A stretch of 64,000 nt of DNA from a virus. Lineage: Duplodnaviria > Caudoviricetes. Of the stretch, positions 13,528 to 28,497 are shown in pieces. A program made the position numbers and the translations under genes. The stretch covers positions 1 to 64,000 of IMG/VR virus record IMGVR_UViG_3300005336_000019; one strand, written 5' to 3'. The notes beneath the pieces are model-generated. The model saw nothing but the letters and a program-made list of their open reading frames with translations. It was not told the origin of the DNA and did no database searches. Position 1 is the stretch's first letter; each line of letters begins with the position of its first letter.

Positions 13528-13604
13528 GCGCTTCGGGATCACGGCGCCTACCGCACGGCACTTCCGGCACGGGGCCGCTGGGTCCTGGCCGAGGTGGTGA
13601 AGTA

Positions 13605-14359: not shown

Positions 14360-14715
14360 CGCACCACTGGAGCTGGACGGTCCGGGTCAAGCAGGGCGAT
14401 CCGGGATACCGGGTGCACAGCACTGAGGCCCTGATGGCGGCCGTCGCGGGCGCCCTCATGGCAGAGGGCACTGATTCCCGGATGGCCGACACGTTCGCCC
14501 GGTCGGTCCGGGAACGGGCGAACGAACAGTCCCAGCAGCGCCGCATGAACCACGCCACGCCGCCGCTGGAGTACCAGCAGATCCTCGGTGCCACGAAGGT
14601 GCTGCACATCACCTCGGACGACCTCCCGGAGGACCCGGACCGGTACTGCGAGGGCCGCACCGAGTCCGGGAGCCGCTGCCCGAGGCACCTCAACCACCTC
14701 GGGGAGTGCAAGTGA
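14356..14715 (+). CDS. hypothetical protein with C-terminal C/H finger
   Basis: GALMAEG helix; CEGRTESGSRCPRHLNH. Confidence 0.8.
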   Translation: MTHHWSWTVRVKQGDPGYRVHSTEALMAAVAGALMAEGTDSRMADTFARSVRERANEQSQQRRMNHATPPLEYQQILGATKVLHITSDDLPEDPDRYCEGRTESGSRCPRHLNHLGECK

Positions 14716-14939
14716 GGTGGGGTGACGACGCCGACGAGGTCGGCGGCAAGGACCGGAGCTGGATCAACCTGGCTCCGGGGCTGGCGGTCGAGATCGAGTA
14801 CAGCTCGACCAGTTACGAGATGGCGCAGAGCGAGGAAGAGATCGAGGCGAAGCTGACCGGCCAGGTCCGCATCACCCGGGAGAAGATCTTCGCCGCCGAC
14901 TTCCTGATCGACTCGCTGACCGGGGAAGAGAAGGACTGA
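14712..14939 (+). CDS. hypothetical protein
   Basis: GTGA overlap. Confidence 0.7.
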   Translation: MRWGDDADEVGGKDRSWINLAPGLAVEIEYSSTSYEMAQSEEEIEAKLTGQVRITREKIFAADFLIDSLTGEEKD

Positions 14940-14962
14940 TCCGGCCGAGGCTGGCCGGATAC

Positions 14963-15013
14963 CGAGGGGCCCGCTTGACGGCGGGCCCCTTCGCTGTACG
15001 ATGGCCTAGGTCA
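14963..15013 (+). promoter_or_regulatory. hairpin with -35 TTGACG as its loop, -10 TACGAT, operator TGGCCTAGGTCA (15002-15013)
   Basis: GAGGGGCCCGC-TTGACG-GCGGGCCCCTT; 16-nt spacer. Confidence 0.7.
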
Positions 15014-15028
15014 AGGAAAGGGAGAAGC

Positions 15029-15487
15029 GTGAAGGCCATCGAATTCCCGGATGCGCTCCGGGAGTTGAAGATCGAAGGCGCCTCGGTGAAACCGGCCGAG
15101 GGCAAGCCAGGTTCCGGTGTGGAGCACGGCTTCATCGTCACGGGCCAGCATGGCGCCCGCATCGCCTGGCAGGTGGCCACGCAGGAGGACGGCCTGATGG
15201 CCGGTACCGGAAACCCTGCCGCCTACCCATCGGCCGTGGCCGCCGCTCCCGACAGGCTCGTCTGCGCCGACGTCGAGGCGTCCATCGCCTGCTGGATCGG
15301 CCAGAACCTCGGTGAGCACATCAGCGAGATCGTCCGGTACAGCGAGACCCGGGACCGGGGCATCCGCTACGGCCTGCGGCTCGACCTGTACAGCGGGGGC
15401 CGGGTGTTCATCCAGGCCCTGTGGATTCTGGAGCCCGGAGAGGAACCGAACCGGGACAACAAGTACCGCATGCGCAACGCGGTCTGA
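15029..15487 (+). CDS. hypothetical protein
   Basis: RBS GGAAAGGGAGAAG. Confidence 0.8.
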   Translation: MKAIEFPDALRELKIEGASVKPAEGKPGSGVEHGFIVTGQHGARIAWQVATQEDGLMAGTGNPAAYPSAVAAAPDRLVCADVEASIACWIGQNLGEHISEIVRYSETRDRGIRYGLRLDLYSGGRVFIQALWILEPGEEPNRDNKYRMRNAV

Positions 15488-15502
15488 AGAAGGAGAAGAC
15501 GG

Positions 15503-15868
15503 GTGGGCAGGGACATCAGGGTGCACAAGGGGATCTACGCCAAGGGGACCCCCAGGGAGCGGCCGTCGGCATGGATCGAGGTGTCGGTTCCGCTCCAGCT
15601 TGAAGCTCACGAGCTGGTCGACGGACTCGGCGAGAACTTCCTGCGCAACGAGACCGACGTCGACTGGAACGAGCGACCGGCCAACCTCCCGGACTCCCTG
15701 ACTCAGCAGGAGATCGTCCGCATCTACAAGGACGAGCTGATGTACTGGGGCACCAACCTGGGCACCTGGTCCGAGAGTCTGAGCACCGACGAGGCGAAGA
15801 CGGCCCGGGGCTGGCTCATGGACATCGTCCTGGCCGCCTTTCCGGAAATGCGGGGGTACCAGATATGA
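15503..15868 (+). CDS. hypothetical protein
   Basis: RBS AAGGAG. Confidence 0.8.
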   Translation: MGRDIRVHKGIYAKGTPRERPSAWIEVSVPLQLEAHELVDGLGENFLRNETDVDWNERPANLPDSLTQQEIVRIYKDELMYWGTNLGTWSESLSTDEAKTARGWLMDIVLAAFPEMRGYQI

Positions 15869-16215
15869 GCGCCCCGTCCGCAGCGGCCGTCAGCCGCTTC
15901 CTGGGGGAGCGCTTCAACCGGTCCCAGCGTGTCGGTCCCGGGCCGACTGGCGTGACAGCGGGGTTCACGGTACGCCGGGCCCTGGGTGAGGGACTGCGGC
16001 CGACGGACTGGGTGGTCGTCGAGTTCGAGCCCGGCTACCACACGATGGCCCGGTTCAGGTTCGGCGGGAATGCCGAGGGCCTGCTGAAGTACACGCAGAA
16101 GGTGCTCACGGACTACGAGCGGAACCTGAAGGCCCGGTACGACGTGAGCCGCAACGACGAGGACGGCCCGGACCAGTGGAACTGCCTGATCGTCCGGCAC
16201 AAGAAGGCATCGTGA
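15865..16215 (+). CDS. hypothetical protein
   Basis: ATGA overlap. Confidence 0.75.
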   Translation: MSAPSAAAVSRFLGERFNRSQRVGPGPTGVTAGFTVRRALGEGLRPTDWVVVEFEPGYHTMARFRFGGNAEGLLKYTQKVLTDYERNLKARYDVSRNDEDGPDQWNCLIVRHKKAS

Positions 16216-16337
16216 CGGAGCAACGCCGCTGGTGGGAAGAGGGCTGCTACTGCCCGCCCGGGGCCTGCATCTGCGGCACTCCGGCCGATCCGTTCCGGAT
16301 CGAGCCGGAAGAGACGACGGAAAGCGAGAAGGACTGA
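16212..16337 (+). CDS. small Cys-rich protein (41 aa, CYCPPGACIC)
   Basis: GTGA and TGATG overlaps on either side. Confidence 0.65.
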   Translation: MTEQRRWWEEGCYCPPGACICGTPADPFRIEPEETTESEKD

Positions 16338-16642
16338 TGGCACAGACCCACATCGGCCGCCTGGCCACCGAGTTGAAGCAGGCCGCCGCCGCACTGGAGC
16401 AGTTCGAGGAGTTCCGCTCCCCCGTCAACCAGGAGGTCGTCTCGGCCGTCTGGTTCGCCGCTGGGCAGCACGACCAGCACGTGAGGGTCGCGGTCCGCGA
16501 GGAGCACGGCACCTTCTACCGGGGCCGGATCACCGAGGTCGGCACCAAGGGCGGCTGGGAGGTGCTGGCCGACGACGGCGAGCTGGTTCCCAACGTGACG
16601 GCCAGCATGTTCGTCTCGCTCATGCTGGTGCAGCGCCCGTGA
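16337..16642 (+). CDS. hypothetical protein
   Basis: TGATG overlap, RBS AAGGA. Confidence 0.8.
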   Translation: MAQTHIGRLATELKQAAAALEQFEEFRSPVNQEVVSAVWFAAGQHDQHVRVAVREEHGTFYRGRITEVGTKGGWEVLADDGELVPNVTASMFVSLMLVQRP

Positions 16643-16781
16643 ACGAGGAGAGGATGCCCGAGAGAGATCCCACCGACCGCAGCAAGCCGCCGAGGAGGCA
16701 CGAGATGAGCAGCAGCGACGACGCCAAGCACACCCGCCCACTGGAGAAGCGCAAGGACGGCTCCAAGCCGCACCCGCAGTC

Positions 16782-17218
16782 GTGAACTCCGCCGACAGGG
16801 CGAAGGAGTTCGATGCGCTGTGGCGGGAATCCATCGCCCGAGCTGGGCGAAGACCGGACTGGAACGACCTGAGCCTGATCGAGCAGCAGGCGATGTCGTC
16901 GGAGTTCCGGACCGAGATGGACCGGTACGGGGACGAGGATCCCACCGCCGAGAACCGGACGAGGACCGGGCTGTACGCCTCGCCGACGAGTTCGAGGCAT
17001 CCTGGCTGACCTCCTGGCTGAACGCCGGGAGCCGCACGACCACCCTCTCGGGCCGCCTGGCGGGCCGCTGGGGTGACGACTACCGCAACGCACGGGACCG
17101 GGAACAAGGAGAAGATCACGATGGGTGCACGCATCACGACCCCACTCAAGGGAGTCCGGAAGACGTCGGCGTGGCCGTACGCGGAGATGCCGCAGAGCAA
17201 GAAGCCCCGTGCCCGTAA
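16782..17218 (+). pseudogene. hypothetical gene with an apparent 1-nt frameshift near 16978
   Basis: Coding-like GC3 frame switches at TACGCC-TCGCCG; adding one C gives ...GLYALADEFEASWL... Confidence 0.5.
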
Positions 17219-17663
17219 GGGCGGCTGGATCCTGGCGATGTCCATCGAGCCGGAGCTGAGCGGGCTGGTCACGTTCTACCCGGAGGGGACCGACTTCCCG
17301 GTCCCGATGGAGGACCACACCAGCAAGCGCCAGATCCTGCACATCGACAACGGCTCGATCTGGGGCAAGAAGATCACGACCCGCCCCTTCTACCAGGTCG
17401 ACGACAGCAACCAGTGCGAGCGGTTCGCCACCACGTTCTGCTCCCTCGGCTACACCACGAACGAGAAGCTGCTGCCGCACCAGGGCGGCGCCTTCTGGGC
17501 CTTCAACTGGTCCTCGCTCACGGTCGCCACGGTGCACATCGCCTCGCAGGTCGCCGACCACTACTTCAACGACCGGTACGACGAGGCGTGGGCCGTCGGC
17601 AAGGCGTTCGGCGACCAGATCCACGCCGCCGAGAACGCCCACTGGGAAGCCCAGGGGAAGTGA
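17121..17663 (+). CDS. hypothetical protein
   Basis: RBS AAGGAG. Confidence 0.85.
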   Translation: MGARITTPLKGVRKTSAWPYAEMPQSKKPRARKGGWILAMSIEPELSGLVTFYPEGTDFPVPMEDHTSKRQILHIDNGSIWGKKITTRPFYQVDDSNQCERFATTFCSLGYTTNEKLLPHQGGAFWAFNWSSLTVATVHIASQVADHYFNDRYDEAWAVGKAFGDQIHAAENAHWEAQGK

Positions 17664-17667
17664 CCCG

Positions 17668-18045
17668 ATGGTGATGGTCAGCGATCCGGGCACGGTGCAG
17701 ATCCCGCGCTCGGGGACGAACGTCGGCCGGGTCGAGGAGTGGTCCGGCCACCCCGGTACCTGGGACGGCTGGGCCGACATCCCGGGGGCTCCGACCGAGG
17801 AGCTGGTCTGCAACGGCGGCAGCCGGGACTGGTGCCGGTACATGGTCACGAGGCGGTACCTGGACCACCTGCTCGACGAGCTGGGCGGCGCCACCCACTG
17901 GGGGCATGACCGGGACGCGGAGTTCACCGAGAAGTCCCGGATGGTCTCGCACTGCCTGGTCTTCATGAGCGAACTCCTGGCGGCGCACTACCAGGAGATC
18001 CGGCGGGACCGCATGCGGGTTCGCCGGGAGGTACAGCAGGGCTGA
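17668..18045 (+). CDS. hypothetical protein
   Basis: ORF tiling. Confidence 0.75.
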   Translation: MVMVSDPGTVQIPRSGTNVGRVEEWSGHPGTWDGWADIPGAPTEELVCNGGSRDWCRYMVTRRYLDHLLDELGGATHWGHDRDAEFTEKSRMVSHCLVFMSELLAAHYQEIRRDRMRVRREVQQG

Positions 18046-18128
18046 TCCGGCTTCGGCTCGGCGGCGCACGGGCTCTGGTCCGTGCGTCTGCCGTACTGCC
18101 GCCGGGCAGGGAATCGGAAGGGGAAGAG

Positions 18129-18464
18129 ATGCGAGCGTACTTCGAGACCAGCAACGGCGAGACGATCCCGCTGCCGGATCCAATGAGCCCCGAGCAGTCG
18201 GCCATCGTGTACCTCACGGGTGGAACCGGCATCCGCCGGATCGACGACGAGACGATCGACGAGTTCGTACGTCGGGCCGATCTGTACGACACGTACATCG
18301 GCGGGATCAACCTGCTGGAGATCGGGACCGGCAAGCGTGTTCCGATCACTCGCCAGGTCATCACCGAGGCGATGGCCGGTCACCCGGTGCTCTGGACGAA
18401 CGCTGGGCTCATGACCCCGGAATCGTTCGACCGCATGATCCGCGTCGCCAAGTCGGCGCTGTAG
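18129..18464 (+). CDS. hypothetical protein (paralog of 9755-10108)
   Basis: DEFVRRADL motif. Confidence 0.85.
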   Translation: MRAYFETSNGETIPLPDPMSPEQSAIVYLTGGTGIRRIDDETIDEFVRRADLYDTYIGGINLLEIGTGKRVPITRQVITEAMAGHPVLWTNAGLMTPESFDRMIRVAKSAL

Positions 18465-18484
18465 ACCAGGAGAGGGGAAGAGCG

Positions 18485-18910
18485 ATGAGTGAGCCGCTGA
18501 ACACCGACGGCTGGGGAGAGGTGAAGGTCCGGACTCCGGGCTCGTTCGCCGACCCCCGGGAGGTGAACGCGGTGATCCGGGAGCTGTTCTGTCACGACAG
18601 CATCCTGGAGTACCAGCGCAGGATCGCCGAGGCGGCCATGAGGGAAGCCGTGGCGGCCTGGCGCAGGGCGATGGCCAAGAAGGGCCTGAGCGCCGACAGT
18701 GACGCCGGTAAGGCGATCCTGGCGGCCGTGAACGGCGTCCTGGACGGCTTCGACCCGGAGAGCGACGAGTGGGACGGCTTCTTCCCGCCGGTCATGCTCT
18801 GCTCCGAGCACGACAGCCCCGTGAAGCCGAGGTTCGGCAAGGGGATCGTCTTCTCGGCCTGCCCCGGCGTCCCGTGGTGCCGGGCTCACGAACCGGCGCG
18901 TGTCCAGTGA
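18485..18910 (+). CDS. hypothetical protein with C-terminal Zn ribbon
   Basis: CSEH...FSACPGVPWC. Confidence 0.8.
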   Translation: MSEPLNTDGWGEVKVRTPGSFADPREVNAVIRELFCHDSILEYQRRIAEAAMREAVAAWRRAMAKKGLSADSDAGKAILAAVNGVLDGFDPESDEWDGFFPPVMLCSEHDSPVKPRFGKGIVFSACPGVPWCRAHEPARVQ

Positions 18911-19233
18911 GCTACGAATGCCGGGGCTGCGGCGGCACCTGCTGCACGGGGATCGGGAGCGACCCCTGCACCTGCCCGCCGCCGCCCGAGCCGGAAGAGC
19001 AGGAGCTGTACCCCCGGCGGTCGCCGGGGGCGCACGGCAGGCACTGCACCTGGCCGGAGTGTGACGGCTCATGCCTGATCACGGTGACCGTCGAGTGGCG
19101 GGCGCTGGAGGCGTTCTACGAGGCGGCCCGGTGGGGCCGGGCGATGACGCCCAGCACGGCGGGTGAGCGCACCGGGATGGAGCTGGTGGCGCGGATCATC
19201 GAACAGGGCAAGAGGGGTGCGGAACGTGGCTGA
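18907..19233 (+). CDS. hypothetical Cys-rich protein
   Basis: GTGA overlap. Confidence 0.7.
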   Translation: MSYECRGCGGTCCTGIGSDPCTCPPPPEPEEQELYPRRSPGAHGRHCTWPECDGSCLITVTVEWRALEAFYEAARWGRAMTPSTAGERTGMELVARIIEQGKRGAERG

Positions 19234-19326
19234 AGTGATCCGGGCGTTCGCCGGGGTCGTGGCGCTGATCGCCATGAAGAAGACCGAGATCGACCGCCGG
19301 AGGGCGGCCGGAAAGGGGAAGACGGC

Positions 19327-19623
19327 ATGACCACCCAGGACGAGAAGCTGGACATGCGCACGATCCACCTGCTGGCAGCGGCCAAAGAGCTGGCCGACCT
19401 GCTCTACAAGTGGAACGTGATCGACGAGTACGACCTGGTCATCCAGGACGGCCGCAATGGCGGCACCCCGTACCACCACGTGAACGAGGCGCTGGTGGCC
19501 GTGCTGAAGAAGCTCGGCACCGAGAACAAGGACGGCTTCTACGAGGGCGTCACCTCGGGCATGGACCCGCAGGAGGCACTGGACAACGCCATCGCCTACG
19601 AACGCCGCTACGACGAGATCTGA
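19327..19623 (+). CDS. hypothetical protein
   Basis: RBS AAAGGGGAAG. Confidence 0.8.
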   Translation: MTTQDEKLDMRTIHLLAAAKELADLLYKWNVIDEYDLVIQDGRNGGTPYHHVNEALVAVLKKLGTENKDGFYEGVTSGMDPQEALDNAIAYERRYDEI

Positions 19624-19655
19624 GACCGGAAGACACGGAGAGGGAGAGGAAGAAC

Positions 19656-20486
19656 ATGGGCGAGATCAGCAAGTACGAGGGCGGCGGCTCCGGAGCGGAG
19701 CTGAGCAAGCAGGACGGCCTGCCGGACCAGTCGTTCTCCGGGAAGGGTCAGCACTCCGGCCCGGTCCTGCTGGACATCTCGGGTGACTCGATCCACGGCA
19801 CCGTGACGGTGGACGCCGTCGACTTCGCCTCGGTCCGGGTCTACACCCGGTCCACGGTGCAGTCGGTGATCGACGCCGTCCGCAAGACGAAGATCTACCT
19901 GTCCGGCAGCACGCTGACCGTGAAGGTGCCGGACTTCCAGGTCCCACCGACCGTGATCCAAGGAGGTGGCAGCCGGATGGTCTTCTCGGGCAACGTCTCC
20001 TTCGTGTCGGTCGGCCGGGGGGCCACGGTGATCGGCGGCTCCGGCTCCGGGGAGGACATGGTCCGGGTCGAGGTCACGCTGCCCCGACAGTCCGGCATCC
20101 GGGCCGACCTCGGCTCCGGCATGCTCGACGTGCACGGCGACCTCGTCGGCATCGACGGCGACCTGTCCTCGGGCTCGATCGCGGTCCACGGTTCGGTCGG
20201 CAAGGCCCGTGCCGAGCTGTCCTCCGGCTCGTTCCAGATCGGCCGGGTGACGGAGGGGATCGAAGCCACGGCGTCGTCCGGCAGCCTGAACGTGGGCGAG
20301 TACACCGGCTCCCACGCCAAGCTGCGGATCTCCTCCGGCAGCATGAACCTGAACGTCGGTCCGGCCGCCAGCGGCAGCATCGACGTCCGGGTCTCCTCCG
20401 GTTCGGCCAACATCAGCGGAACCCGGGGGCGCACCGACCTGGACATCAGGACGAAGAAGTCCTCCGGCAGCATCAACCTCTACTGA
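19656..20486 (+). CDS. DUF4097-like beta-strand repeat protein
   Basis: Repeated SSGS(I/F/L/M) units. Confidence 0.8.
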   Translation: MGEISKYEGGGSGAELSKQDGLPDQSFSGKGQHSGPVLLDISGDSIHGTVTVDAVDFASVRVYTRSTVQSVIDAVRKTKIYLSGSTLTVKVPDFQVPPTVIQGGGSRMVFSGNVSFVSVGRGATVIGGSGSGEDMVRVEVTLPRQSGIRADLGSGMLDVHGDLVGIDGDLSSGSIAVHGSVGKARAELSSGSFQIGRVTEGIEATASSGSLNVGEYTGSHAKLRISSGSMNLNVGPAASGSIDVRVSSGSANISGTRGRTDLDIRTKKSSGSINLY

Positions 20487-20487
20487 C

Positions 20488-20970
20488 ATGCTGGACGCCG
20501 ACCTCGTCCACGAGACGGGACACTTCAGCTACGCCGACGCCGAGCACCTGGCTGACCTGTGGAACCGGGCCTACCCGGCGATGCGGCAGATCATCACCCG
20601 GTACATCGAGAGCCAGCGGGAGTACATCGAGCGGAGGGGCTGGGTCATCGACCCGAATCACCCCCACGCCGAAGTGCTCCAGGAGCGCGCCACCCCGGAA
20701 CGGAAGGCCCGGTACCGGCTGAAGCTGTCGGAAGAGCTGCGCCGGGACCTCGGCCAGCTCGACCGGGGCACGCACAAGCCGTGCACCCGCAGCCCGGGAT
20801 GCTTCTCGGTGACGGCCGCCTACATGGCGGTGCGGAGCCTGATCAGTCACAGCTCCCTCAACAGTGAGGGGCTGGCCAACATCTACCGCCTGGCCGCCGA
20901 TCTGGCCGAGGCGGAGGAGCGGGTCAACGAGGCCCGCAAGAAGTGGCACCAGGAACAGGAGAAGAAGTGA
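20488..20970 (+). CDS. hypothetical protein
   Basis: ORF tiling. Confidence 0.8.
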   Translation: MLDADLVHETGHFSYADAEHLADLWNRAYPAMRQIITRYIESQREYIERRGWVIDPNHPHAEVLQERATPERKARYRLKLSEELRRDLGQLDRGTHKPCTRSPGCFSVTAAYMAVRSLISHSSLNSEGLANIYRLAADLAEAEERVNEARKKWHQEQEKK

Positions 20971-21209
20971 ACGCAGAAGTCGAGGTCCCCGTCGCCGAGA
21001 GCATCGCCGTGGGTCTGGCGATCGTCTTCTCGGATCTTCCGCAGAGCACCATCACGTGGATGTCCGAGCTGATGGTGCGCACCTGGCACGAGGGGCCGGA
21101 CCGCTCCGACGACCTGCTCTTCAACGCCCTCGACAAGGAGGTCCGGGCGGGCAACGAGGACGCCATCCGCATGGTCCTCGCCGCCGCCCGGCGCGGTCTG
21201 AAGGTCTGA
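20967..21209 (+). CDS. hypothetical protein (paralog of 21308-21529)
   Basis: FSDLPQSTITWM...VRAGNEDAI. Confidence 0.8.
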   Translation: MNAEVEVPVAESIAVGLAIVFSDLPQSTITWMSELMVRTWHEGPDRSDDLLFNALDKEVRAGNEDAIRMVLAAARRGLKV

Positions 21210-21279
21210 CTCCGAGGCCGAAACCCCTGGAAGGGGGTCGTGGGACGAATGGAAGTCCCGCCTGACGATGGCCGTCAGA
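21205..21279 (+). ncRNA. type II hammerhead ribozyme HH2 (cleavage after GUC, 21239)
   Basis: GGCC-GAAA-CCCC/GGGG-UC-stem I GUGGGAC/GUCCCGC-CUGACGA-U-GGCC; outer stem UCUGAC/GUCAGA. Confidence 0.93.
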
Positions 21280-21307
21280 AGAATTCGGAACGGGAGGAGA
21301 ACGCATC

Positions 21308-21529
21308 ATGGAACTGCCCAACCGCGCCGAGGTGCGCAGCCAGATCAGCTCGAAGTTCCCGGGCCTGCCCAACGACACCCTGGACTGGGTGGCGGGCATG
21401 CTCTCCGACAAGATCGAGGCCGACTGGCAGACCGCCGACGCCGAGTTCCACCGCGAGATGGAGCGCGCGATCCGGGCCGGTGAAGAGCACGCGATCCTCG
21501 TGGCCCTCGCCGCGCTCAAGGCCGTCTGA
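21308..21529 (+). CDS. hypothetical protein (paralog of 20967-21209)
   Basis: FPGLPNDTLDWV...IRAGEEHAI. Confidence 0.8.
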   Translation: MELPNRAEVRSQISSKFPGLPNDTLDWVAGMLSDKIEADWQTADAEFHREMERAIRAGEEHAILVALAALKAV

Positions 21530-21544
21530 CCTACGGGTCGCATT

Positions 21545-21601
21545 GAAGGGGCTCCGGTTGCGGCCGGGGCCCCTTCTGCGTATCGTCTTTGACCTAGGCC
21601 A
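21545..21601 (+). promoter_or_regulatory. terminator-like hairpin overlapping promoter TTGCGG-N17-TATCGT, operator TGACCTAGGCCA (21590-21601)
   Basis: GAAGGGGCTCCGGT/GCCGGGGCCCCTTC stem. Confidence 0.7.
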
Positions 21602-21617
21602 TTCGGATGGGAGAGAC

Positions 21618-21902
21618 GTGAGCGAGGACGAATTCGAAGCCCTGGCCGATGAGTTACGGGCTTCATGGAGCGGCGACCGCGAACGCTGGGACGGTCTTCG
21701 CGAGGAGCTGACGGACAAGTCCCTGTGCCTGCGCTGGGACGGCGACCACCGCCTTCTCCTGGAGCAGCACACCAGCAGGCAGACGGCGTTGATCGCCACC
21801 ACGTACGGCCGCAGGCAGGACGACCGGATCCGGTACGCCGTGATCCTGGAGCGCAGCCTGAGATCGGGCCGCATGGAGACCAAGGGGATGGAGCCCTCAT
21901 GA
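21618..21902 (+). CDS. hypothetical protein
   Basis: RBS GGGAGA. Confidence 0.75.
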   Translation: MSEDEFEALADELRASWSGDRERWDGLREELTDKSLCLRWDGDHRLLLEQHTSRQTALIATTYGRRQDDRIRYAVILERSLRSGRMETKGMEPS

Positions 21903-22219
21903 ATCACCCGGAGACCGCAGAGATCGACATTCCGGCCGTGGACGGCACGCTGCTGCACATCGTGCTGAACAAGGAGGAGGGCACCGGGAGGTTCACCTAC
22001 TCCAGCATGGTCGAGGTGCAGCAGCACACCCCGTACGGCCTGCGCCCGCTGGTCACGTACAGCATGGGCGCGGTGCTGCGGGCGCCCCGCAACAAGCCGT
22101 TCCGGCTGCACGACGGGGACGCCGGACTCGTGATCGAGGGCCACTGGCTGATCACGGTCGGGGACTGGATGGAGATGCTGAGCGAGGCCAGCGTCGACAC
22201 GTGGAAGGTGGACATCTGA
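21899..22219 (+). CDS. hypothetical protein
   Basis: ATGA overlap. Confidence 0.75.
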   Translation: MNHPETAEIDIPAVDGTLLHIVLNKEEGTGRFTYSSMVEVQQHTPYGLRPLVTYSMGAVLRAPRNKPFRLHDGDAGLVIEGHWLITVGDWMEMLSEASVDTWKVDI

Positions 22220-22419
22220 TGGCAAGCCTGTCGATCGAGTTCGACAACGACGAGAGCTACCACACGGGACCGCCGCAGGTTCCCCTCGGCAGCGACTTCG
22301 GGTACGCCTCCCTGAAGGGGTACCGGATCGACGAAGGCGGCTTCGTGGTCATGGAGTTCGACAACCACGCCATCCGCAAGGTGCCGGTCCGGCGCCTGCT
22401 GCGCATCACGGAGCTGTGA
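22219..22419 (+). CDS. hypothetical protein
   Basis: TGATG overlap. Confidence 0.75.
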   Translation: MASLSIEFDNDESYHTGPPQVPLGSDFGYASLKGYRIDEGGFVVMEFDNHAIRKVPVRRLLRITEL

Positions 22420-22420
22420 C

Positions 22421-22882
22421 ATGCCGCTGATCTGGACTCAAGGGAACCTGCTGGAGTCGGCGGCGCAAGGACTGGTCAGCCCGGTCAACTGCGTCGGCGT
22501 GCCGGGTGCCGGGCTGGCCCGGCAATTCAAGGACCGCTGGCCCATGCAGGTCGAGGAGTACGTGACCTTCTGCCGGGAGGGCCGGATGAAGCCCGGCCTG
22601 GTGCACGATGCACTTCTGCCGGACGGGCGCCGGATCCTGAGCATCGCCACCAAGCGGCACTGGCGGGACAACTCACGGATCGAGGACGTGGATCGGGGGC
22701 TGGCCGCTCTGAAGGAGTACCTGGACGAGACGGGCCTGATCTCGGTCGCTCTCCCGGCGCTCGGCTGCGGGCTGGGCGGCCTGCCGAAGGCTCTCGTAGC
22801 CCGGCGGGTGCAGTTCTGGCTGGCCGACAATTTCTCCGTGGTCTACGTCTACGGGCTCGACGAGCCGGAGGTGTCGGCGTGA
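22421..22882 (+). CDS. macrodomain ADP-ribosylglycohydrolase (DarG/TARG1-like)
   Basis: GNLLE...VNCVGVPGAGLARQFK...TKRHWR...ALPALGCGLGGL. Confidence 0.9.
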   Translation: MPLIWTQGNLLESAAQGLVSPVNCVGVPGAGLARQFKDRWPMQVEEYVTFCREGRMKPGLVHDALLPDGRRILSIATKRHWRDNSRIEDVDRGLAALKEYLDETGLISVALPALGCGLGGLPKALVARRVQFWLADNFSVVYVYGLDEPEVSA

Positions 22883-23076
22883 GCAAGGAGATCATCCGGG
22901 TGACCGTCGTCTTCGAGTACGAGGTCGACCCGGAGTTGTACCCCGGAGCGAAAACGCCCGGCGAGCGGGCGGAAGTCGACCGGGAGAACTTCGCCAAGAA
23001 CCCGGACCTGGTGGTGGAAACGCTCGCCGACAAGGGAGCGAAGTCCGTCACCCTCGGGTCTTTCACGATCAACTGA
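22879..23076 (+). CDS. hypothetical protein
   Basis: GTGA overlap, RBS GGAGG. Confidence 0.75.
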   Translation: MSKEIIRVTVVFEYEVDPELYPGAKTPGERAEVDRENFAKNPDLVVETLADKGAKSVTLGSFTIN

Positions 23077-23096
23077 TCACCGGAACAGGAGAAGAC

Positions 23097-23702
23097 ATGG
23101 CGATGACCCGCGAAGAGGAGACGGCGCTGGCGAAGGAGATGGCCGAGGAGATGGGCCTGAACCTGCCGTACGCCGCCCAGGTGGGCTTCGAGTACGACGT
23201 GAAGGCGGCCCGGCAGAAGGCCGAGGAACTGCGAGACCTGGCCCGCAGGCGGGAGCAGGAGTCGCGCGACTCGTTCGATCGGTGCGACACGGACGGCGCC
23301 CTCTCGCAGTGGGCGAGCGGGATCAACGCCGAGAAGTACCGGCTCCAGGCCGACATCGTCGAGAACGGCGGCATGTGGTACTTCCCGGCCCTCTTCGACC
23401 TGGAGGGCAACCTGGTTCCGGCCCGGGAGGCGTACGGCCAGTACGGATCCTTCTGGTCTCTGCTGGACGCCGACGGGAACCGCACCGGCCAGACCTTCAA
23501 CGAGTCGAAGGCCCAGAACGACAAGGTGAAGATCCGCAACGATGCCCGGAAGGGCTACTACGTCGGCTCGGTTCTGGCCCCGGCCAGAGTCGTGACGCGC
23601 GGCCAGTCCGTCACCTCGGTCGCCTGCCACATCGACCGGAACGACGGCGGCTGGGACCCGGACGTGATGGTGCTCGACAACGGGAAGGGCGAGCAGGAGT
23701 GA
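23097..23702 (+). CDS. actinophage-type hypothetical protein (SFDRCDTDG.LSQWA family)
   Basis: Recognisable motif; RBS AGGAG. Confidence 0.85.
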   Translation: MAMTREEETALAKEMAEEMGLNLPYAAQVGFEYDVKAARQKAEELRDLARRREQESRDSFDRCDTDGALSQWASGINAEKYRLQADIVENGGMWYFPALFDLEGNLVPAREAYGQYGSFWSLLDADGNRTGQTFNESKAQNDKVKIRNDARKGYYVGSVLAPARVVTRGQSVTSVACHIDRNDGGWDPDVMVLDNGKGEQE

Positions 23703-24019
23703 AGCTGGTCAGCAACACGCCCCGCCTGGAACTGCTGCGGATCGAGCTGACGACCGGCCAGTGCCCGCCGCAGTCATGTCTGGAGTGGGACGAGTTCCTG
23801 CACCTGTACGCCCTGCTGCGGCGACTCCCCGGGGCCGTCCCGGCAGTGCGCTCGGAGGTGCTGACGAAGCTGCTGGGCCGGGGCTTCGAGCACCGGTACG
23901 CCACGAACCTGATGAGCCTGGCAACGGCGGGAACGCAGCCGCTGACCATGCTGGTTCGGCAGGCTGCGTTCCACTCGGAGATCCGGCCCCTTCGCGAAGA
24001 GGAGAAGGTGGACAAGTGA
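23699..24019 (+). CDS. hypothetical protein
   Basis: GTGA overlap. Confidence 0.7.
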   Translation: MKLVSNTPRLELLRIELTTGQCPPQSCLEWDEFLHLYALLRRLPGAVPAVRSEVLTKLLGRGFEHRYATNLMSLATAGTQPLTMLVRQAAFHSEIRPLREEEKVDK

Positions 24020-24420
24020 TGAGCGACCCTGACGACAACAACCCGGACTTCCGGCCCGGCGGGAATGTCCAGGCCGCCGTAGCGCGCATGCTGCTCTGGC
24101 TGGAGCAGTACCCGGACGACGTGAACGTGGCAGCCCAGATCGGAAGTTCGAACGGCTTCATCACGGACGGCTGGCCGTACCGCATGTACGCCGTCGACCG
24201 CCGGGACCTGGCCGCCGTGCTGCGTCTGGTGCAGAAGCTGCCGGACTTCCAGATCTACACAGAGGACGCCTCCACGGTCTGTGAAGCGTGCGACACGAAC
24301 ATCACCTGGGGTGACCAGGACCCCCGGCTGTACTCGCTCGTCGAGGCCGCCGGTCAGCACGTGTGTGACCCGGGGAAGAAGGCGGCGGTCGAACGGGACC
24401 GGGCCGCTCGGAAGGTGTGA
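24019..24420 (+). CDS. hypothetical protein
   Basis: TGATG overlap. Confidence 0.8.
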   Translation: MSDPDDNNPDFRPGGNVQAAVARMLLWLEQYPDDVNVAAQIGSSNGFITDGWPYRMYAVDRRDLAAVLRLVQKLPDFQIYTEDASTVCEACDTNITWGDQDPRLYSLVEAAGQHVCDPGKKAAVERDRAARKV

Positions 24421-24486
24421 GGCGCTTCGGTGGGGTCCGGCTGCGGCCGGGCCTTCGCCGTGGGATCTCACGGAACTGGAGGAGAA

Positions 24487-24759
24487 ATGCACCACAGCGA
24501 GATCGATCACGAGGCCAAGGTCAAGGAGCCCGTGGCCGACCTGGACGACTGGTACGGCGAGCGGCCGTACCTGCTGGAGGGGTTCGTCCCCGTCGACAGC
24601 AGCGACGTCATCGTGCCGGTCGACAGCGACAGCCCGGAGAGCTTCATCCTGGCCCTCACCGAGGGGCAGGCGGTTCAGGCCCTGCTGTCGCTGGCCGAGC
24701 AGATCGGCGACGTCCGGGCCGTGGAGCTGATCCAGCAGCAGGCCGCAACGCCCAAGTAG
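24487..24759 (+). CDS. hypothetical acidic protein
   Basis: RBS GGAGGAG. Confidence 0.8.
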   Translation: MHHSEIDHEAKVKEPVADLDDWYGERPYLLEGFVPVDSSDVIVPVDSDSPESFILALTEGQAVQALLSLAEQIGDVRAVELIQQQAATPK

Positions 24760-24779
24760 CCAGGGCGAGTTCGATCAGA

Positions 24780-24796
24780 TACAGTGGCCTAGGTCA
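24780..24796 (+). promoter_or_regulatory. -10 TACAGT plus operator TGGCCTAGGTCA
   Basis: Palindrome family. Confidence 0.7.
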
Positions 24797-24812
24797 GGGA
24801 AGGAGGAAAGAC

Positions 24813-24896
24813 ATGGCAGAGAAGCTGCCCCAGCGCGAGCCGGGGAAGGCCCTCAAGGAGGCGCGCGAGCGCGAAGAGGGCCAGGGTCAGCGATGA
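24813..24896 (+). CDS. 27-aa peptide MAEKLPQREPGKALKEAREREEGQGQR
   Basis: Perfect SD AAGGAGG, own promoter and downstream hairpin. Confidence 0.7.
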   Translation: MAEKLPQREPGKALKEAREREEGQGQR

Positions 24897-24901
24897 CCTT
24901 C

Positions 24902-24926
24902 AGGGGGCGCCCGACGGGCGCCCCCT
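24902..24926 (+). terminator. GC-rich hairpin
   Basis: AGGGGGCGCCC-GAC-GGGCGCCCCCT. Confidence 0.55.
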
Positions 24927-24962
24927 CATTGATGCAGTGATCGGAACAGGAGAGAGAGACCC

Positions 24963-25397
24963 ATGGAGTTCCACGAGCGCTTCGCCGAGAAGGCTGCCGA
25001 CACCGACTACTCCCGCTACCCCCAGCTCCAGGCGCTGAGCAAGTACGACATCAACGCGACGGCCGAGGCTCTGCGCCTGACCGCGATCCAGCTCGGCACC
25101 CACGTGCGCGGGTGGGGCATGCTGGACGACCTGACGCTCGACGAGCCGACGGTCATCACGGCCCTGCTGGCGCTGAAGCGGCGCTGGGACGACGAGGGGC
25201 ACCTGGTCTCGGTCGACTTCGAGGAGTACTGGGACGCCACCGACACCCACAACTTCCCCTCCTCCCTGCTGGAGGAGATGAAGCGCCACCTCGTCCGCCA
25301 GTTCCTGGAGGGCAAGAAGGCCGAGCACGTCGCGGTCAGCAACCCGTACGGGATCTGGCTGTTCGACAAGGCCGTCCTGGAGGGGATCTTCAAGTGA
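24963..25397 (+). CDS. hypothetical protein
   Basis: RBS AGGAGA. Confidence 0.8.
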   Translation: MEFHERFAEKAADTDYSRYPQLQALSKYDINATAEALRLTAIQLGTHVRGWGMLDDLTLDEPTVITALLALKRRWDDEGHLVSVDFEEYWDATDTHNFPSSLLEEMKRHLVRQFLEGKKAEHVAVSNPYGIWLFDKAVLEGIFK

Positions 25398-25678
25398 TCG
25401 ACTCCCTCTCGAACCTGCCGACCGGGGTCAACGAGCTGTACCCCAACTGGCAGGCCGCCTTCGCCGAGATCACCGTCCGCCCCCGGGAGGATGCGGGTCG
25501 GAAGCCGGAGATGCCCCTGCTCTCCCGTGGGCACTGCTTCGCGGACGACCGGGGTGACGTCTGGACGGTCCTTCGCGCTACCGTCGTGACGGAGACCGAC
25601 GAGTTCAGCGGTGACGAGCTTCCATACCGCTACGCCTACGTCTACGAGGTCGTGAGCGGCAGGCGTCAGCTCGACTGA
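25394..25678 (+). CDS. hypothetical protein
   Basis: GTGA overlap. Confidence 0.75.
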   Translation: MIDSLSNLPTGVNELYPNWQAAFAEITVRPREDAGRKPEMPLLSRGHCFADDRGDVWTVLRATVVTETDEFSGDELPYRYAYVYEVVSGRRQLD

Positions 25679-25684
25679 GCCACC

Positions 25685-25757
25685 CAAGGGGCGGCCCCGG
25701 ATCGGGGTCGCCCCTTGTTGTGTTTCCAGCGTGACCTAGGCCGGTTGATGATAGACT
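25685..25757 (+). promoter_or_regulatory. terminator hairpin, operator TGACCTAGGCCG (25732-25743) and -10 TAGACT
   Basis: CAAGGGGCGGCCCCG/CGGGGTCGCCCCTTG followed by a T-rich tract. Confidence 0.7.
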
Positions 25758-25779
25758 CCCGTGCACGGAAGGAGAGGAA

Positions 25780-26274
25780 ATGGCAAACGACTTGGTGAGA
25801 TTCCCGGAGGCCGGGGATCACTGGGAGGAGATACCGGGGCCCGGCATGTACGTGCTGGCGGTTCTCCCCAGGAAGGCTGAGCCCGACCAGTGCGCCGTGG
25901 GCGCCGCCATCCTCATGCTGCGCCCACAGGGGCGCCTGCTCACCCCGGTCGACCCGCTGTGGCCGACGGAGGAGAGCCGGAACTACGACGCCAGCCTGCT
26001 GGAGGAGGCGGCACAGCTCTTCGAGGAGAGGGGCGAGCGGGTCAAGGCCGCGACGATACGGGCCCAGTTCCCCACCACGGACCTGTCGGTCGAGGTCGTC
26101 CAGGCCACACACATGGGCTCGACAGCGCGCACCCTGCGCAGCACGAAGACCGGCGAGTACTGGCAGGCCCGATGGGAAGACCTCACGCCGTCCGGAATCC
26201 TGCACCTGCACCAGATCCACACCTGCTTCGTACGGCCGCCCGTACTGATCACGTTCCTGGGGGACGAGGACTGA
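25780..26274 (+). CDS. hypothetical protein
   Basis: RBS AAGGAGAGG. Confidence 0.8.
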   Translation: MANDLVRFPEAGDHWEEIPGPGMYVLAVLPRKAEPDQCAVGAAILMLRPQGRLLTPVDPLWPTEESRNYDASLLEEAAQLFEERGERVKAATIRAQFPTTDLSVEVVQATHMGSTARTLRSTKTGEYWQARWEDLTPSGILHLHQIHTCFVRPPVLITFLGDED

Positions 26275-26654
26275 TGAAGCTGTTCGGCAAGAAGAAGCCG
26301 GAAGACGAGAAGCCGCCGACCGGCCAGAGGCCCCGCATCCGGGGGCACGTCGAAGCGTTCTACGTCCAGCGGGCGTCGGAGGCATTCATCGAGGTCATCA
26401 TGAAGGCTTCCGACGCGCAGCGCCCCGGCAGGATCGGAGCCGACCACAGTTCCGACGTGGACCGGGCACAGGTGCTGGAGGCTGCCGTCTCGGTGGCCGC
26501 TCTGCACTGCAACGAAGATCTGCTTTCCCGGCTGTACTCCTTCCGGGACGCCGTGCTCGAACTCACCATGGGCGGCGGCTCGGAAGCCGAAGTACGCGCC
26601 ACCCGAGAGCACTTCACGAAGGGGTGCCGGGAAGCGCTCGGCACCGACCAGTAG
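26274..26654 (+). CDS. hypothetical protein
   Basis: TGATG overlap. Confidence 0.8.
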   Translation: MKLFGKKKPEDEKPPTGQRPRIRGHVEAFYVQRASEAFIEVIMKASDAQRPGRIGADHSSDVDRAQVLEAAVSVAALHCNEDLLSRLYSFRDAVLELTMGGGSEAEVRATREHFTKGCREALGTDQ

Positions 26655-26675
26655 AACCGGAGAGGGAGAAGAGCA

Positions 26676-27191
26676 GTGCGACTCATGCACCAGCACGACC
26701 TGGGCGGACCGGGCCGGGTGATCGTCATGGCAGGTGACCTCCCCGTCACCATCACGGTCGACGAACGGGCCGAGTACCGCTCGGTGGACGTCCTGGCCGA
26801 TCGCGGCCTGGCCGCCTGGGCAGGACCCATCGGCCCGGGAGGCGTCTCGTTCGGGGTCGAGGTCGGCAGGCCCACCCTGATCAACACCCTGCGCGACAAG
26901 CTGGGTCTGCGTATGGGTACCTCAGTGTCCGGCGGCGGCTCGGTCTCCTCGTCCGGGCGCGGCTCGATCGCGGCCGGGGGGAGCATCGTCAACTGTGCCA
27001 CCGGCCGGGGTGCGAAGGTCACCGTGAGCGGAGCGGAGCAGAAGCAGCCGGAGGTCGGCGTACATCTGACTGTTCCCAGGCTGTGCATCTTCGAGATCCG
27101 GTCCCACGGCGGCATCCGCGTTCTGCACGACGGTATCGAGCTGTCCTTCCAGGCGGCCGAGGAGCGCGGGCTTCTGGCGGCGGCCCGATGA
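26676..27191 (+). CDS. hypothetical protein
   Basis: RBS CGGAGAGGGAGAAGA. Confidence 0.8.
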   Translation: MRLMHQHDLGGPGRVIVMAGDLPVTITVDERAEYRSVDVLADRGLAAWAGPIGPGGVSFGVEVGRPTLINTLRDKLGLRMGTSVSGGGSVSSSGRGSIAAGGSIVNCATGRGAKVTVSGAEQKQPEVGVHLTVPRLCIFEIRSHGGIRVLHDGIELSFQAAEERGLLAAAR

Positions 27192-27406
27192 TCTCGGCGG
27201 TCGGCGACTTCCTCGTGGAGCGGTTCCCCGGAGCGGGCCCGAACCGCCGGGTGGCACGCATCGTCAGCAGCCAGCCGGAGGAGGGGCGCCTTCGGGTGTC
27301 CCGGACCGTCCAGGCGGGAGGCCGTCGCTACACGGTGGCCTTCCACTTCCCTCCCGGCATCCGGCAGGGCCGGGCCATCGCCTGGCCGAGGGAGGCGGAG
27401 CGCTGA
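27188..27406 (+). CDS. hypothetical protein
   Basis: ATGA overlap. Confidence 0.65.
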   Translation: MISAVGDFLVERFPGAGPNRRVARIVSSQPEEGRLRVSRTVQAGGRRYTVAFHFPPGIRQGRAIAWPREAER

Positions 27407-27831
27407 TGAGCCTGCGCCAGGAAGCCGAAGCACTGTTCTTCGGAGTCGGAGTCCAGGAGCTGTACGGCCACTGGTCCTGGGCCGACCGGGGCTCGATGTT
27501 CATTCGGTTCGGCGAGTGGGAGCCGGGCCAGGCGCCCGACACCTGGGCCTACCGGGTTCACGCACCTCACCCGCTTGACAGTGATCGCCGGATCGACAAG
27601 GTGATCACGTACTCGGTGCTGTACACAGCAGCCGAGCTGATCGCCTACGAGAACGCCGACACCGAGAAGCCGTTCCACCCGCCGAGCGAAGAAACCGGTC
27701 GAGCCTGTTCCATGTGGGTCTTCAGCGACGAACTCGGCACGTTCGACCCTCACACTCTGGACCAGGTTCTCCAGGTTGCCGTGTTCGGCGGCGTGAAGTA
27801 CCCCCACTTCGAGCCCCGCAACCGGGGCTGA
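27406..27831 (+). CDS. hypothetical protein
   Basis: TGATG overlap. Confidence 0.8.
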   Translation: MSLRQEAEALFFGVGVQELYGHWSWADRGSMFIRFGEWEPGQAPDTWAYRVHAPHPLDSDRRIDKVITYSVLYTAAELIAYENADTEKPFHPPSEETGRACSMWVFSDELGTFDPHTLDQVLQVAVFGGVKYPHFEPRNRG

Positions 27832-27849
27832 CGGAAAGCGAGAAGAGAC

Positions 27850-28179
27850 GTGAAGCACGAGTTCGCCATCGACTACGCCGGGCTCACTCCGCAGCAGAAG
27901 CTCGTGATTCTGGAGGAGATGGGATTCAAGGAGATTCCGCCCTCCGAGCACGGCACGAACTGTCTGTCCCGGCAGGGCAGCGGCATCATCTGCGACTGTC
28001 TCCAGGGCGTGACGACCTGGGGCGCTCCGCAGGACGTGAAGAAGTACCTGGGCGAGACGCACGAGGAACGCGCCGAGTTTGCGGCCCGGCGCCAGCTCTA
28101 CCTGAACGAGGGCGAGGGTGAGAGCCCCGGATCCTGGATCTATCACCTGGAGAAGAACGCCCCCCGCTACTGGCACTGA
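27850..28179 (+). CDS. hypothetical protein
   Basis: Purine-rich RBS. Confidence 0.8.
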   Translation: MKHEFAIDYAGLTPQQKLVILEEMGFKEIPPSEHGTNCLSRQGSGIICDCLQGVTTWGAPQDVKKYLGETHEERAEFAARRQLYLNEGEGESPGSWIYHLEKNAPRYWH

Positions 28180-28194
28180 GGAACGGAGAAGAGC

Positions 28195-28497
28195 ATGGCG
28201 AAGATCGATGTGAACGAGGTCCAGGGCCTCTTCCGGGTCGGTCTGGCCACGGACCAGAAGGGCAACGAGGTCTACGTGCTGGAGATCCTGGGGATCCCGG
28301 TTCTGTACGCCGACGCCCACGAGTTCGAGGCGGGCCACCAGGACGCCGAGGACTGGCAGGAGACCTTCGAGACGCGACTGGCCCGGATGCTGGCCAAGGT
28401 GCTGACGGAGGGCTACGACCACGACTTCGTGAAGTGGCGCACCGAATCGCCGACCGGCCGTGACGTGTACCGCCTCGGCCCCTTCGGGGAGTCGTGA
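28195..28497 (+). CDS. hypothetical protein (tandem paralog 1)
   Basis: VLEILGIPV motif. Confidence 0.8.
   Translation: MAKIDVNEVQGLFRVGLATDQKGNEVYVLEILGIPVLYADAHEFEAGHQDAEDWQETFETRLARMLAKVLTEGYDHDFVKWRTESPTGRDVYRLGPFGES

Follow-up and report, generated by a model that had tools for sequence, protein, structure and literature searches.

The question raised by positions 21205-21279 (+) of this phage DNA is whether the short stretch between two small genes encodes a self-cleaving RNA and, if it does, what a cut at this point would do to the transcript. The window, meaning the whole 64,000-nucleotide stretch that was analyzed, covers the initial 64 kb of a viral metagenome record of 76.5 kb, whose completeness is estimated at about 40%. 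Around the element, its DNA is 74-78% identical to that of the Streptomyces phages Satis, Quantum, Kradal, EhyElimayoE, Kela, and JustBecause (184-187 kb), and the phage that carries it is related to Satis, Kela, and JustBecause. Comparison with relatives indicates, with a probability of about 0.8, that 21205-21279 (+) is a type II hammerhead self-cleaving ribozyme in a same-strand run of genes of a Streptomyces phage.

Anatomy of the Element

A sequence-only reading of the locus had listed the parts of a hammerhead with a GUC cleavage site, and every part was found, when the letters were read directly, where it had been placed. The parts are given below together with the upstream gene; A4, A5, and A7 are alignments defined in the next section.

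20943-21209 (+): upstream open reading frame, 88 aa, with stop codon UGA at 21207-21209
21205-21210 (+): outer stem II, 5' strand, UCUGAC; pairs with 21274-21279, is paired in the minimum free energy (MFE) fold of -34.6 kcal/mol, and has 47 of 48 cells paired in eight orthologues
21211-21215 (+): 5' bulge UCCGA, of which 21211-21214 is the proposed partner of loop I at 21250-21253
21216-21219 (+): inner stem II, 5' strand, GGCC; C11.1 is 21219
21220-21222 (+): core G12 A13 A14, invariant in alignments A4, A5, and A7
21223-21238 (+): stem III hairpin, consisting of A15.1-U16.1 and CCCCU/GGGGG with the loop GGAA; a covarying stem
21239-21240 (+): C17 and the predicted cleavage site, between 21239 and 21240, placed by the hammerhead consensus
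21240-21261 (+): stem I hairpin of seven pairs (arms 21240-21246 and 21255-21261) with the loop GAAUGGAA at 21247-21254; all seven pairs are changed on both sides in A4 and A5
21262-21268 (+): core C3 U4 G5 A6 C7 G8 A9, CUGACGA; 21262-21267 is also the left arm of an alternative hairpin
21269 (+): extra U between A9 and G10.1
21270-21273 (+): inner stem II, 3' strand, GGCC; G10.1 is 21270
21274-21279 (+): outer stem II, 3' strand, GUCAGA; GUCAG at 21274-21278 is also complementary to the core CUGAC at 21262-21266

Stems I and III each have a closing loop and stem II is open, which is the type II permutation. Stem II is long, with four inner pairs, a 5-nucleotide bulge on the 5' side, and six outer pairs, and the upstream stop codon does lie inside it, as had been proposed, with UGA 21207-21209 in the outer 5' strand. 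The hammerhead core is complete, C3 U4 G5 A6 N7 G8 A9 and G12 A13 A14 being on opposite strands, and the A15.1-U16.1 pair (A21223-U21238), which is invariant in 24 of 24 distinct rows of A4 and 60 of 60 of A5, is followed by an H17 that is not G (C21239). The G10.1-C11.1 pair (G21270-C21219) is also present, but it does not follow A9 directly, U21269 being interposed.

Considered singly, none of the figures computed from this one sequence is decisive; it is the comparison of the sequence with those of relatives that is. The Rfam model Hammerhead_II (RF02276) scores 21205-21279 at 24.6 bits (E 0.0058 in a search of 301 nucleotides), short of the gathering cut-off of 37 bits. In an E-value scan of the whole window with Rfam the element is absent from the list, on which a sister site at 29306-29368 appears with 31.7 bits, and a scan of the window at gathering thresholds returns 11 tRNAs only. 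The folding energy is -34.6 kcal/mol (z -2.55), a value equaled or bettered by 5 of 200 shuffled sequences. A loose core pattern matches three times in the window against 0.87 expected, a count of three being reached in 8 of 100 shuffles. A match to the pattern is also found on the reverse strand, at 57901-57956.

Orthologues, Copies, and Covariation of the Stems

Orthologues of the element occupy the same place in Kela and JustBecause, after a homologous upstream gene, and orthologues are found in metagenomes as well. Where the window has GGCC/GGCC as inner stem II, the Kela and JustBecause orthologues have GACC/GGUC; one stem I pair that is A-U in the former is G-C in the latter, and another goes from G-C to G-U. 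The window site and these two orthologues, with the structure drawn by hand, served to build a covariance model. In the 76.5-kb record it finds three matches, all on the + strand, at 21203-21281 (106.7 bits), 29294-29369 (50.5 bits), and 9657-9738 (22.4 bits), so that two further copies are added to the first.

9657-9738 (+): second copy, 22.4 bits, E 3e-04; GUA site with a predicted cut after 9701 and without the extra nucleotide
29294-29369 (+): third copy, 31.7 bits with Rfam and 50.5 bits with the model; GUC site with a predicted cut after 29332 and with the extra U

The stop codon upstream of the second copy, 9661-9663, sits within CUGAC, and that of the third copy, 29293-29295, is in frame and lies just ahead of the outer stem, 5 nucleotides before the partner strand. 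Applied to five Streptomyces phage genomes, the model finds 20 copies at E ≤ 0.01, three each in Satis, Kela, and JustBecause, four in Spernnie, and seven in Omar. All copies are in the sense orientation of the flanking genes, and each copy examined lies between same-strand open reading frames, directly 3' of a stop codon; throughout the sub-family the upstream frame ends within about 5 nucleotides of the start of stem II. Weak model matches of 11-15 bits also occur in the window, at 27484-27548, 54717-54794, 3690-3741, 1165-1235, and 1773-1814, and the first of these was rejected as a further copy on finding that it lacks the hammerhead core.

Covariation was assessed in three alignments. In A4, which has 26 rows (24 distinct), 93.8% of cells hold standard pairs versus 67.6% after shuffling, and 18 of the 23 pairs are changed on both sides; none of 500 shuffles reaches any of five measures, and when the partners are slid by one to three columns, pairing falls to 35-49%. 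A5, consisting of 64 matches (60 distinct rows) from 80 IMG/VR loci, is 95.3% paired versus 76.6% when shuffled, again with 0 of 500 shuffles. It should be noted that A4 and A5 were fitted to the structure of the model, which favors that structure, and that stem II is uninformative in A5 because its 3' strand was fixed by the search pattern. Despite the structure-fitted alignments, all seven pairs of stem I change on both sides in A4 and again in A5. The corresponding figures are three of six pairs (A4) and five of six (A5) for stem III, and three of four for inner stem II in A4. A7, an alignment of eight orthologues from the metagenome and IMG/VR scans, is 99.1% paired, and in it the inner stem II pair 15/70 is G-C in four sequences and A-U in four. 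The proposal of a hammerhead with a GUC site is thus upheld by a complete core together with covariation in all three stems.

The relatives differ in how well they are recognized by existing models and in whether they retain the element. Copies in Streptomyces phages of about 50 kb reach the Rfam Hammerhead_II cut-off, with 15 matches of 37.1-53.7 bits at five loci, one site being counted twice among the 15 through overlapping loci; the same model gives no match to three loci (L013, L016, and L022) of Satis and Kela, which are large relatives. Satis is without the element at the syntenic site, which indicates that it is dispensable, and in one metagenomic orthologue (L091) the element is disrupted.

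The Nucleotide Inserted after A9

The extra U between A9 and G10.1 that had been described in the window is present and proves to be a trait of the family, as opposed to an oddity of a single copy. One extra nucleotide is found in 16 of 22 distinct rows of A4 (14 U and 2 C) and in 27 of 38 distinct rows of A6 (24 U and 3 A), an alignment whose rows were chosen by the stem III motif only. In the Kela and JustBecause orthologues the inserted nucleotide is C. That such an insertion is tolerated in some natural hammerheads, as had also been claimed, agrees with what is reported for the CChMVd (+) hammerhead (PMC3705267) and for hammerheads of Penelope elements (PMC4209133), both of which have a nucleotide at the A9/G10.1 position; because it is described in these other natural hammerheads, the extra U can be regarded as a known, tolerated departure from the consensus. 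In the insertion experiments of De la Pena and Flores (2001) on CChMVd, as summarized in PMC3705267, an extra A made trans-cleavage moderately slower, C or G was detrimental, and U made it 3-4-fold faster, so that U is the best tolerated, or even rate-enhancing, inserted residue in that summary.

Proposed Contact between the 5' Bulge and Loop I

A pseudoknot between loop I and nucleotides 3' of stem II is a majority feature of type II hammerheads according to Perreault et al. 2011 (PMC3088659). It takes its canonical form in the Streptomyces phages of about 50 kb, where loop I GUGGC faces a 3' tail GCCA. The window element does not have it. No conserved complement of loop I was found in the 3' tail of the orthologues, and in the sub-family with the AGGCC and GAUGGCC motifs the canonical loop I-3' tail pairing is not above shuffles in either class (571 of 1000 and 218 of 1000).

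The sequence-only reading had suggested instead that the stem II bulge pairs with loop I. Among the eight orthologues this stands, with 31 of 32 cells paired and covarying in A7; as a family-wide property it does not, since shuffles give it no support. The candidate helix has four pairs, between UCCG at 21211-21214 and UGGA at 21250-21253. Its first pair is C-G in four sequences, U-A in three, and unpaired in one (L278, which has a loop of 4 nucleotides and in which a shift by one column gives A-U); the third is C-G in seven and U-G in one, and the fourth is G-U in six and G-C in two. The support for this helix equals that for inner stem II in A7, where one pair covaries.

When 64 distinct combinations of bulge and loop from the whole family are considered, complementarity between cognate partners does not exceed that between shuffled ones (the observed mean is reached in 253 of 2000 shuffles), and for the 31 combinations with an outer helix the observed value is reached by 1369 of 5000 shuffles when runs of at least three pairs are counted and by 553 of 5000 for at least four. 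Shuffling loses little complementarity because many bulges contain CC and many loops GG. A control with reversed loops is lower in the set of 31 (2.39 versus 4.84) and equal in the set of 64 (4.83 versus 4.80). Fourteen of the 31 outer-helix combinations, including that of the third copy in the window, are without any run of three pairs. The covariation in A7 thus suggests that the bulge-loop I contact is probably real for the orthologue group and is not a general rule of the sub-family. Such a contact would be the usual partner of loop I, relocated from the 3' tail to the 5' bulge.

Possible Alternative Pairing of the 3' Tail

The 3' strand of outer stem II has a dual complementarity that was absent from the sequence-only reading. 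GUCAG at 21274-21278 can pair with the 5' strand CUGAC at 21206-21210, as in the hammerhead, or with the core CUGAC at 21262-21266. Pairing with the core, extended by G8 and the last C of GGCC, gives a hairpin of six pairs (21262-21267 with 21273-21278) that excludes the active fold. For 21203-21281 the calculated energies are -35.1 kcal/mol for the active fold, -31.2 kcal/mol for the hairpin form, and -37.8 kcal/mol for the MFE fold, which is inactive and combines the anti-core hairpin with a 5' hairpin, tertiary contacts being uncounted in these energies. The 5' alternative hairpin, GGUCU/AGGCC, has only four of its five pairs in Kela, as judged by eye. The anti-core hairpin is also present in the MFE fold of 21150-21320, it forms when the 5' part is masked, and the 3' cleavage product is predicted to fold into stem I and, after it, this hairpin.

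The tail was sampled by an IMG/VR scan (at least 80 loci) that specified the two halves of the core and GAUGGCC and left the tail unconstrained. It gave at least 79 distinct matches, of which 72 parse as hammerheads with two hairpins. Among the matches listed, the tail can pair with C3-N7 in 33 copies; its first nucleotide is G in the 23 copies in which N7 is C and A in the 10 in which N7 is U, and none has an NUCAG tail that mismatches N7, so that agreement is 33 of 33, in counts that ignore kinship and in which a single ancestral double change, or a few, may lie behind the U-A class. An earlier scan in which NUCAG was fixed adds one copy, L204, with N7 = A and tail U; the non-complementary combinations in that scan lacked the GGCCGAAA half of the core, as judged by eye. 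In two loci, L138 and L168, all three strands have changed together, to CUGAU in the flank, CUGAU in the core, and AUCAG in the tail.

Among the matches listed, the 5' flank pairs with the same tail in 17 of the 33 tail-core copies, L138 and L168 among them, compared with 2 of the 46 others. The remaining 16 have no complementary 5' flank, which identifies the core as the conserved partner of the tail. Of the 23 copies of the three-way class that have an upstream open reading frame of at least 40 codons, 18 have the stop codon within the 5' partner, again among the matches listed; in the window this is the case for the copies at 9657-9738 and 21205-21279, not for that at 29294-29369. The covariation of the 3' tail with N7, the one free position of the core, suggests that the anti-core hairpin is under selection.

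Alternative Explanations

The tail pairing invites an explanation of the element that extends the hammerhead and does not replace it, namely that GUCAG alternates between the 5' strand (on) and the core (off), as a conformational switch or a product trap. As a switch, a ribosome terminating at UGA 21207-21209 may mask the 5' partner and drive the tail to pair with the core, so that cleavage would be coupled to upstream translation; as a trap, the hairpin formed after cleavage may release the 3' product from its 5' counterpart and prevent the two from being rejoined. The full agreement of tail and N7, the additional A/U case of L204, the three-strand changes of L138 and L168, the enrichment of a 5' partner in the tail-core copies, together with the copies in which the core is the only partner, and the frequency of a stop codon within the 5' partner all point in this direction, as do the folding of the 3' product with the hairpin and the closeness of the active and inactive folds (within about 3 kcal/mol). 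Set against these are the common ancestry that may account for the U-A class in counts that take no account of kinship, the in-frame stop of the third copy, which lies 5 nucleotides before the partner strand, and the shortness of phage intergenic spacers, which would place any element near a stop codon. In addition, 39 of the 72 parsed hammerheads among the matches listed lack the hairpin, which thus is not required for function. On balance the switch or trap is a tentative proposal, with the odds clearly against it, and its strongest form, in which a sub-class of phage type II hammerheads that includes all three window copies would be three-strand switches in which the ribosome at the stop codon decides the cut, is, if anything, slightly more doubtful.

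Other explanations dispense with catalysis. The inactive MFE fold, the insertion in the core (C in two orthologues), and the loss of the element in Satis and its decay in L091 would be compatible with an RNA that is structurally conserved and catalytically weak or dead, its core a relic and its hairpins and long stem II kept for another role, which may be protection of mRNA ends, pausing, or protein binding. This is unlikely, because the unpaired core (GAAA, CUGA, and GA) is invariant in all aligned copies and the stems vary freely, a combination that is the signature of selection on catalysis, and an inserted U raised CChMVd trans-cleavage 3-4-fold (PMC3705267). Less likely again is an element that works as DNA, in which the CTGAC...GTCAG inverted repeat would form the ends of a small cassette, mobile or recombining, or a protein-binding palindrome and the RNA structure would be secondary; it would account for the several copies per genome and for an occurrence that varies among close relatives with different neighboring genes (Satis without the element, Kela and JustBecause with another downstream gene). 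However, the stems tolerate G-U pairs, which work in RNA and not in a DNA duplex, all copies have the sense orientation of the flanking genes, and the inner palindrome has the invariant catalytic core as its left arm. Finally, a Rfam score below threshold and a loose pattern that is only mildly enriched (three matches being reached in 8 of 100 shuffles) are what would be expected if GC-rich DNA resembled the hammerhead consensus by chance, but the compensatory changes in every stem of orthologues and paralogues refute this explanation (A4, A5, and A7), and its probability is negligible. The points counted against the hammerhead reading itself are the Rfam score below the cut-off and the omission of the site from the list of the whole-window scan, the core insertion with C in Kela and JustBecause, an inactive MFE fold slightly below the active one, the failure of family-wide shuffles to support the bulge-loop pairing, and the loss in Satis and disruption in L091.

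Relation to Known Hammerheads

Nothing is new in the class of ribozyme, its type II permutation, its phage setting, or the extra core nucleotide. The window element shares its core and permutation with the type II hammerheads of bacteria and prophages (RF02276; PMC3088659), as well as their setting in intergenic, sense positions within runs of phage genes, with several copies per genome. It differs from RF02276 in its low score (24.6 bits against a cut-off of 37) and its long stem II of four plus six pairs with a 5' bulge, in a loop I whose partner appears to be this bulge instead of the 3' tail, in a 3' tail complementary to both the 5' flank and the catalytic core, and in the nucleotide inserted after A9. 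The CChMVd hammerhead is of the type III permutation. Both it (in its (+) form) and the hammerheads of Penelope-like elements have an insertion at the core position of U21269 (PMC3705267 and PMC4209133), but these are viroid or eukaryotic RNAs and belong to a different biological setting from the phage element.

RiboJ insulators, which were engineered from the sTRSV hammerhead, are cleaved so that the downstream mRNA has a defined 5'-OH end, with a hairpin at its start, whatever the sequence upstream; the working principle is the same as that proposed here, although RiboJ is synthetic and of different permutation and origin. Activity of predicted type II elements in cells is documented for Desulfovibrio vulgaris, three of whose hammerheads, located next to phage-derived genes, cleave in vivo as detected by cyPhyRNA-seq (PMC8782182). 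They are of the same type as the window element and come from another host and sub-family.

A search of the open literature on hammerheads in Streptomyces phages or actinophages returned only an unrelated aminoglycoside study. Three features appear to be undescribed in the open literature: the long stem II with its bulge and a partner for loop I on the 5' side, the complementarity of the tail to the core with covariation at N7, and the three-way arrangement at the stop codon; for each of these the alignments of Perreault et al. 2011 (Dataset S1) may hold members. Catalogues of hammerheads in phage and prophage operons go back to 2011, and the purpose of these ribozymes is still described as open (PMC6765202).

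The locus adds no new ribozyme class; it is a member of a sub-family that current Rfam thresholds miss in large Streptomyces phages. Two regularities of this sub-family are that the ribozyme begins at the upstream stop codon and, with support at the level of the orthologues, that loop I docks on the 5' bulge of a long stem II and not on the 3' tail. If the three-strand switch were true, it would give phage hammerheads a regulatory logic and a testable reason for their placement at stop codons, and an anti-core hairpin formed after the cut would, if real, make cleavage irreversible and cap the new 5' end. JustBecause and Satis, which are cultured phages with Streptomyces lividans hosts, carry elements of this kind, which makes the function of phage hammerheads directly approachable.

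Flanking Genes and Proposed Processing of the Transcript

The upstream gene is accompanied, beyond the ribozyme, by a second small gene and a hairpin.

21308-21529 (+): downstream open reading frame, 73 aa, a paralogue of the upstream one (24% identity over 71 aa, E 4e-07)
21545-21576 (+): GC-rich hairpin of 14 pairs with a loop of 4, after the downstream open reading frame; phage Satis also has one

None of the six proteins flanking the three window copies has a Pfam or PHROG match. The neighboring genes vary, Kela and JustBecause carrying the element beside a different downstream gene. The hairpin at 21545-21576, which had been noted earlier, is genuine, 21530-21600 folding with -38.5 kcal/mol (z -3.66, 0 of 200 shuffles). 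It has no U tail; a simple scan of 20300-22300 for promoters and terminators found nothing and did not call it. The hairpin may serve as a terminator or as a stem protecting the 3' end. Its position after 21308-21529 makes plausible the monocistronic RNA of about 340 nucleotides (21240 to about 21577) that had been predicted to result from cleavage, which is a reasonable deduction from this hairpin.

The proposed course of events is as follows. When the 75 nucleotides of the element have been transcribed, the RNA would cleave itself after C21239, in an active fold that is probably held by the four-pair contact between the bulge (21211-21214) and loop I (21250-21253), this contact replacing the usual type II pseudoknot of loop I with the 3' tail. 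This would leave the upstream mRNA with a 2',3'-cyclic phosphate at its end in the stem III hairpin, 30 nucleotides past the stop codon, and would give the downstream mRNA a 5'-OH at the very start of the stem I hairpin, from which it would extend for about 340 nucleotides to the hairpin at 21545-21576. In bacteria, a hairpin at the end of an mRNA generally protects it. The cut would uncouple the stability and translation of the two adjacent small genes. Type II hammerheads flank prophage genes, and several cleave in vitro; Perreault et al. 2011, in which these observations were reported, proposed that they process long phage transcripts (PMC3088659), and the purpose of bacterial and phage hammerheads was still unproven according to a 2019 review (PMC6765202).

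Four sequencing runs that are of RNA, or possibly so, contain 8-13% of the sampled words, in the form of assembled contigs, which cannot show ends. Their contigs on 9500-29450 are scattered short pieces, and none of these bears on an end at 21239/21240. One contig, of run X19, spans 9564-9815 and runs across the copy at 9657-9738, the first along the window.

The Hammerhead Site in Related Phages

In Satis, one of the 184-187-kb Streptomyces phages related to the window, the locus syntenic with window positions 21200-21310 (L001, 2140-2185) has no ribozyme but retains UCUGAC and CCGA, which are followed by the ribosome-binding region of the homologue of the 73-amino acid gene that lies downstream of the predicted hammerhead at 21205-21279. 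In Kela and JustBecause, the ribozyme is retained and the gene that follows it is different. The site looks like a hotspot for the gain and loss of elements. A disrupted orthologue of the hammerhead is found in an IMG/VR record of 192 kb (L091, 8763-8845), where the 5' half is intact as far as the start of stem I and then gives way to unrelated sequence.

A CGGAA-N-GGGAG-type motif, of which the ribosome-binding site forms part, lies between the hammerhead and the following start codon at four sites, two of them in the window and two in other phage loci (L002 and the Satis locus L008):

window 21284-21297, CGGAA-N-GGGAG-type motif
window 9733-9747, CGGAA-N-GGGAG-type motif
L002 2371-2385, CGGAA-N-GGGAG-type motif
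L008 about 480-495, CGGAA-N-GGGAG-type motif

The UCGGA at window positions 21285-21289 is also complementary to the UCCGA bulge on the 5' side of stem II, and in the long-context MFE fold, UUCGG is paired with CCGAA.

In Satis, a single small gene, gene 248, is bracketed by two hammerheads (Satis 146.4-146.9 kb), each of which begins at the stop codon of the preceding gene:

L008 86-162, hammerhead
L008 398-473, hammerhead

Hammerheads in Other Phages

The AGGCC...CUGACGAUGGCCGUCAG sub-family is also present in putative Burkholderia phages (L041 and L067, from IMG/VR records of 52,414 and 47,399 bases, respectively). The stem III inserts of these copies are long, and several have a 5' CCACA that is able to form 5 pairs with a loop I UGUGG.

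In Streptomyces phages of about 50 kb, canonical type II hammerheads occur in dense arrays:

Omar, phage position about 41.9-47.6 kb: L014, L019, L028
Spernnie: L015, L020
IMG/VR records of 50.6-53.0 kb: L122, L125, L126

A count of the Rfam match rows gives about 9 separate sites in Omar that exceed the Rfam gathering score, packed in about 6 kb, and the other records have at most 8 model matches apiece. The GenBank records of the array-bearing phages have no annotated feature beneath the hammerhead sites, and searches of the open literature found no report of them.

Other Features of the Window

On the plus strand, 47255-47329 weakly matches the twister-sister ribozyme model (23.8 bits, E 0.0047 in a 301-nt search; the gathering score of the model is 34). 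One stem is absent from the alignment, and long ORFs on both strands run across the match, which is probably spurious. The window also carries a tRNA cluster:

50299-52997, minus strand, 11 tRNA genes
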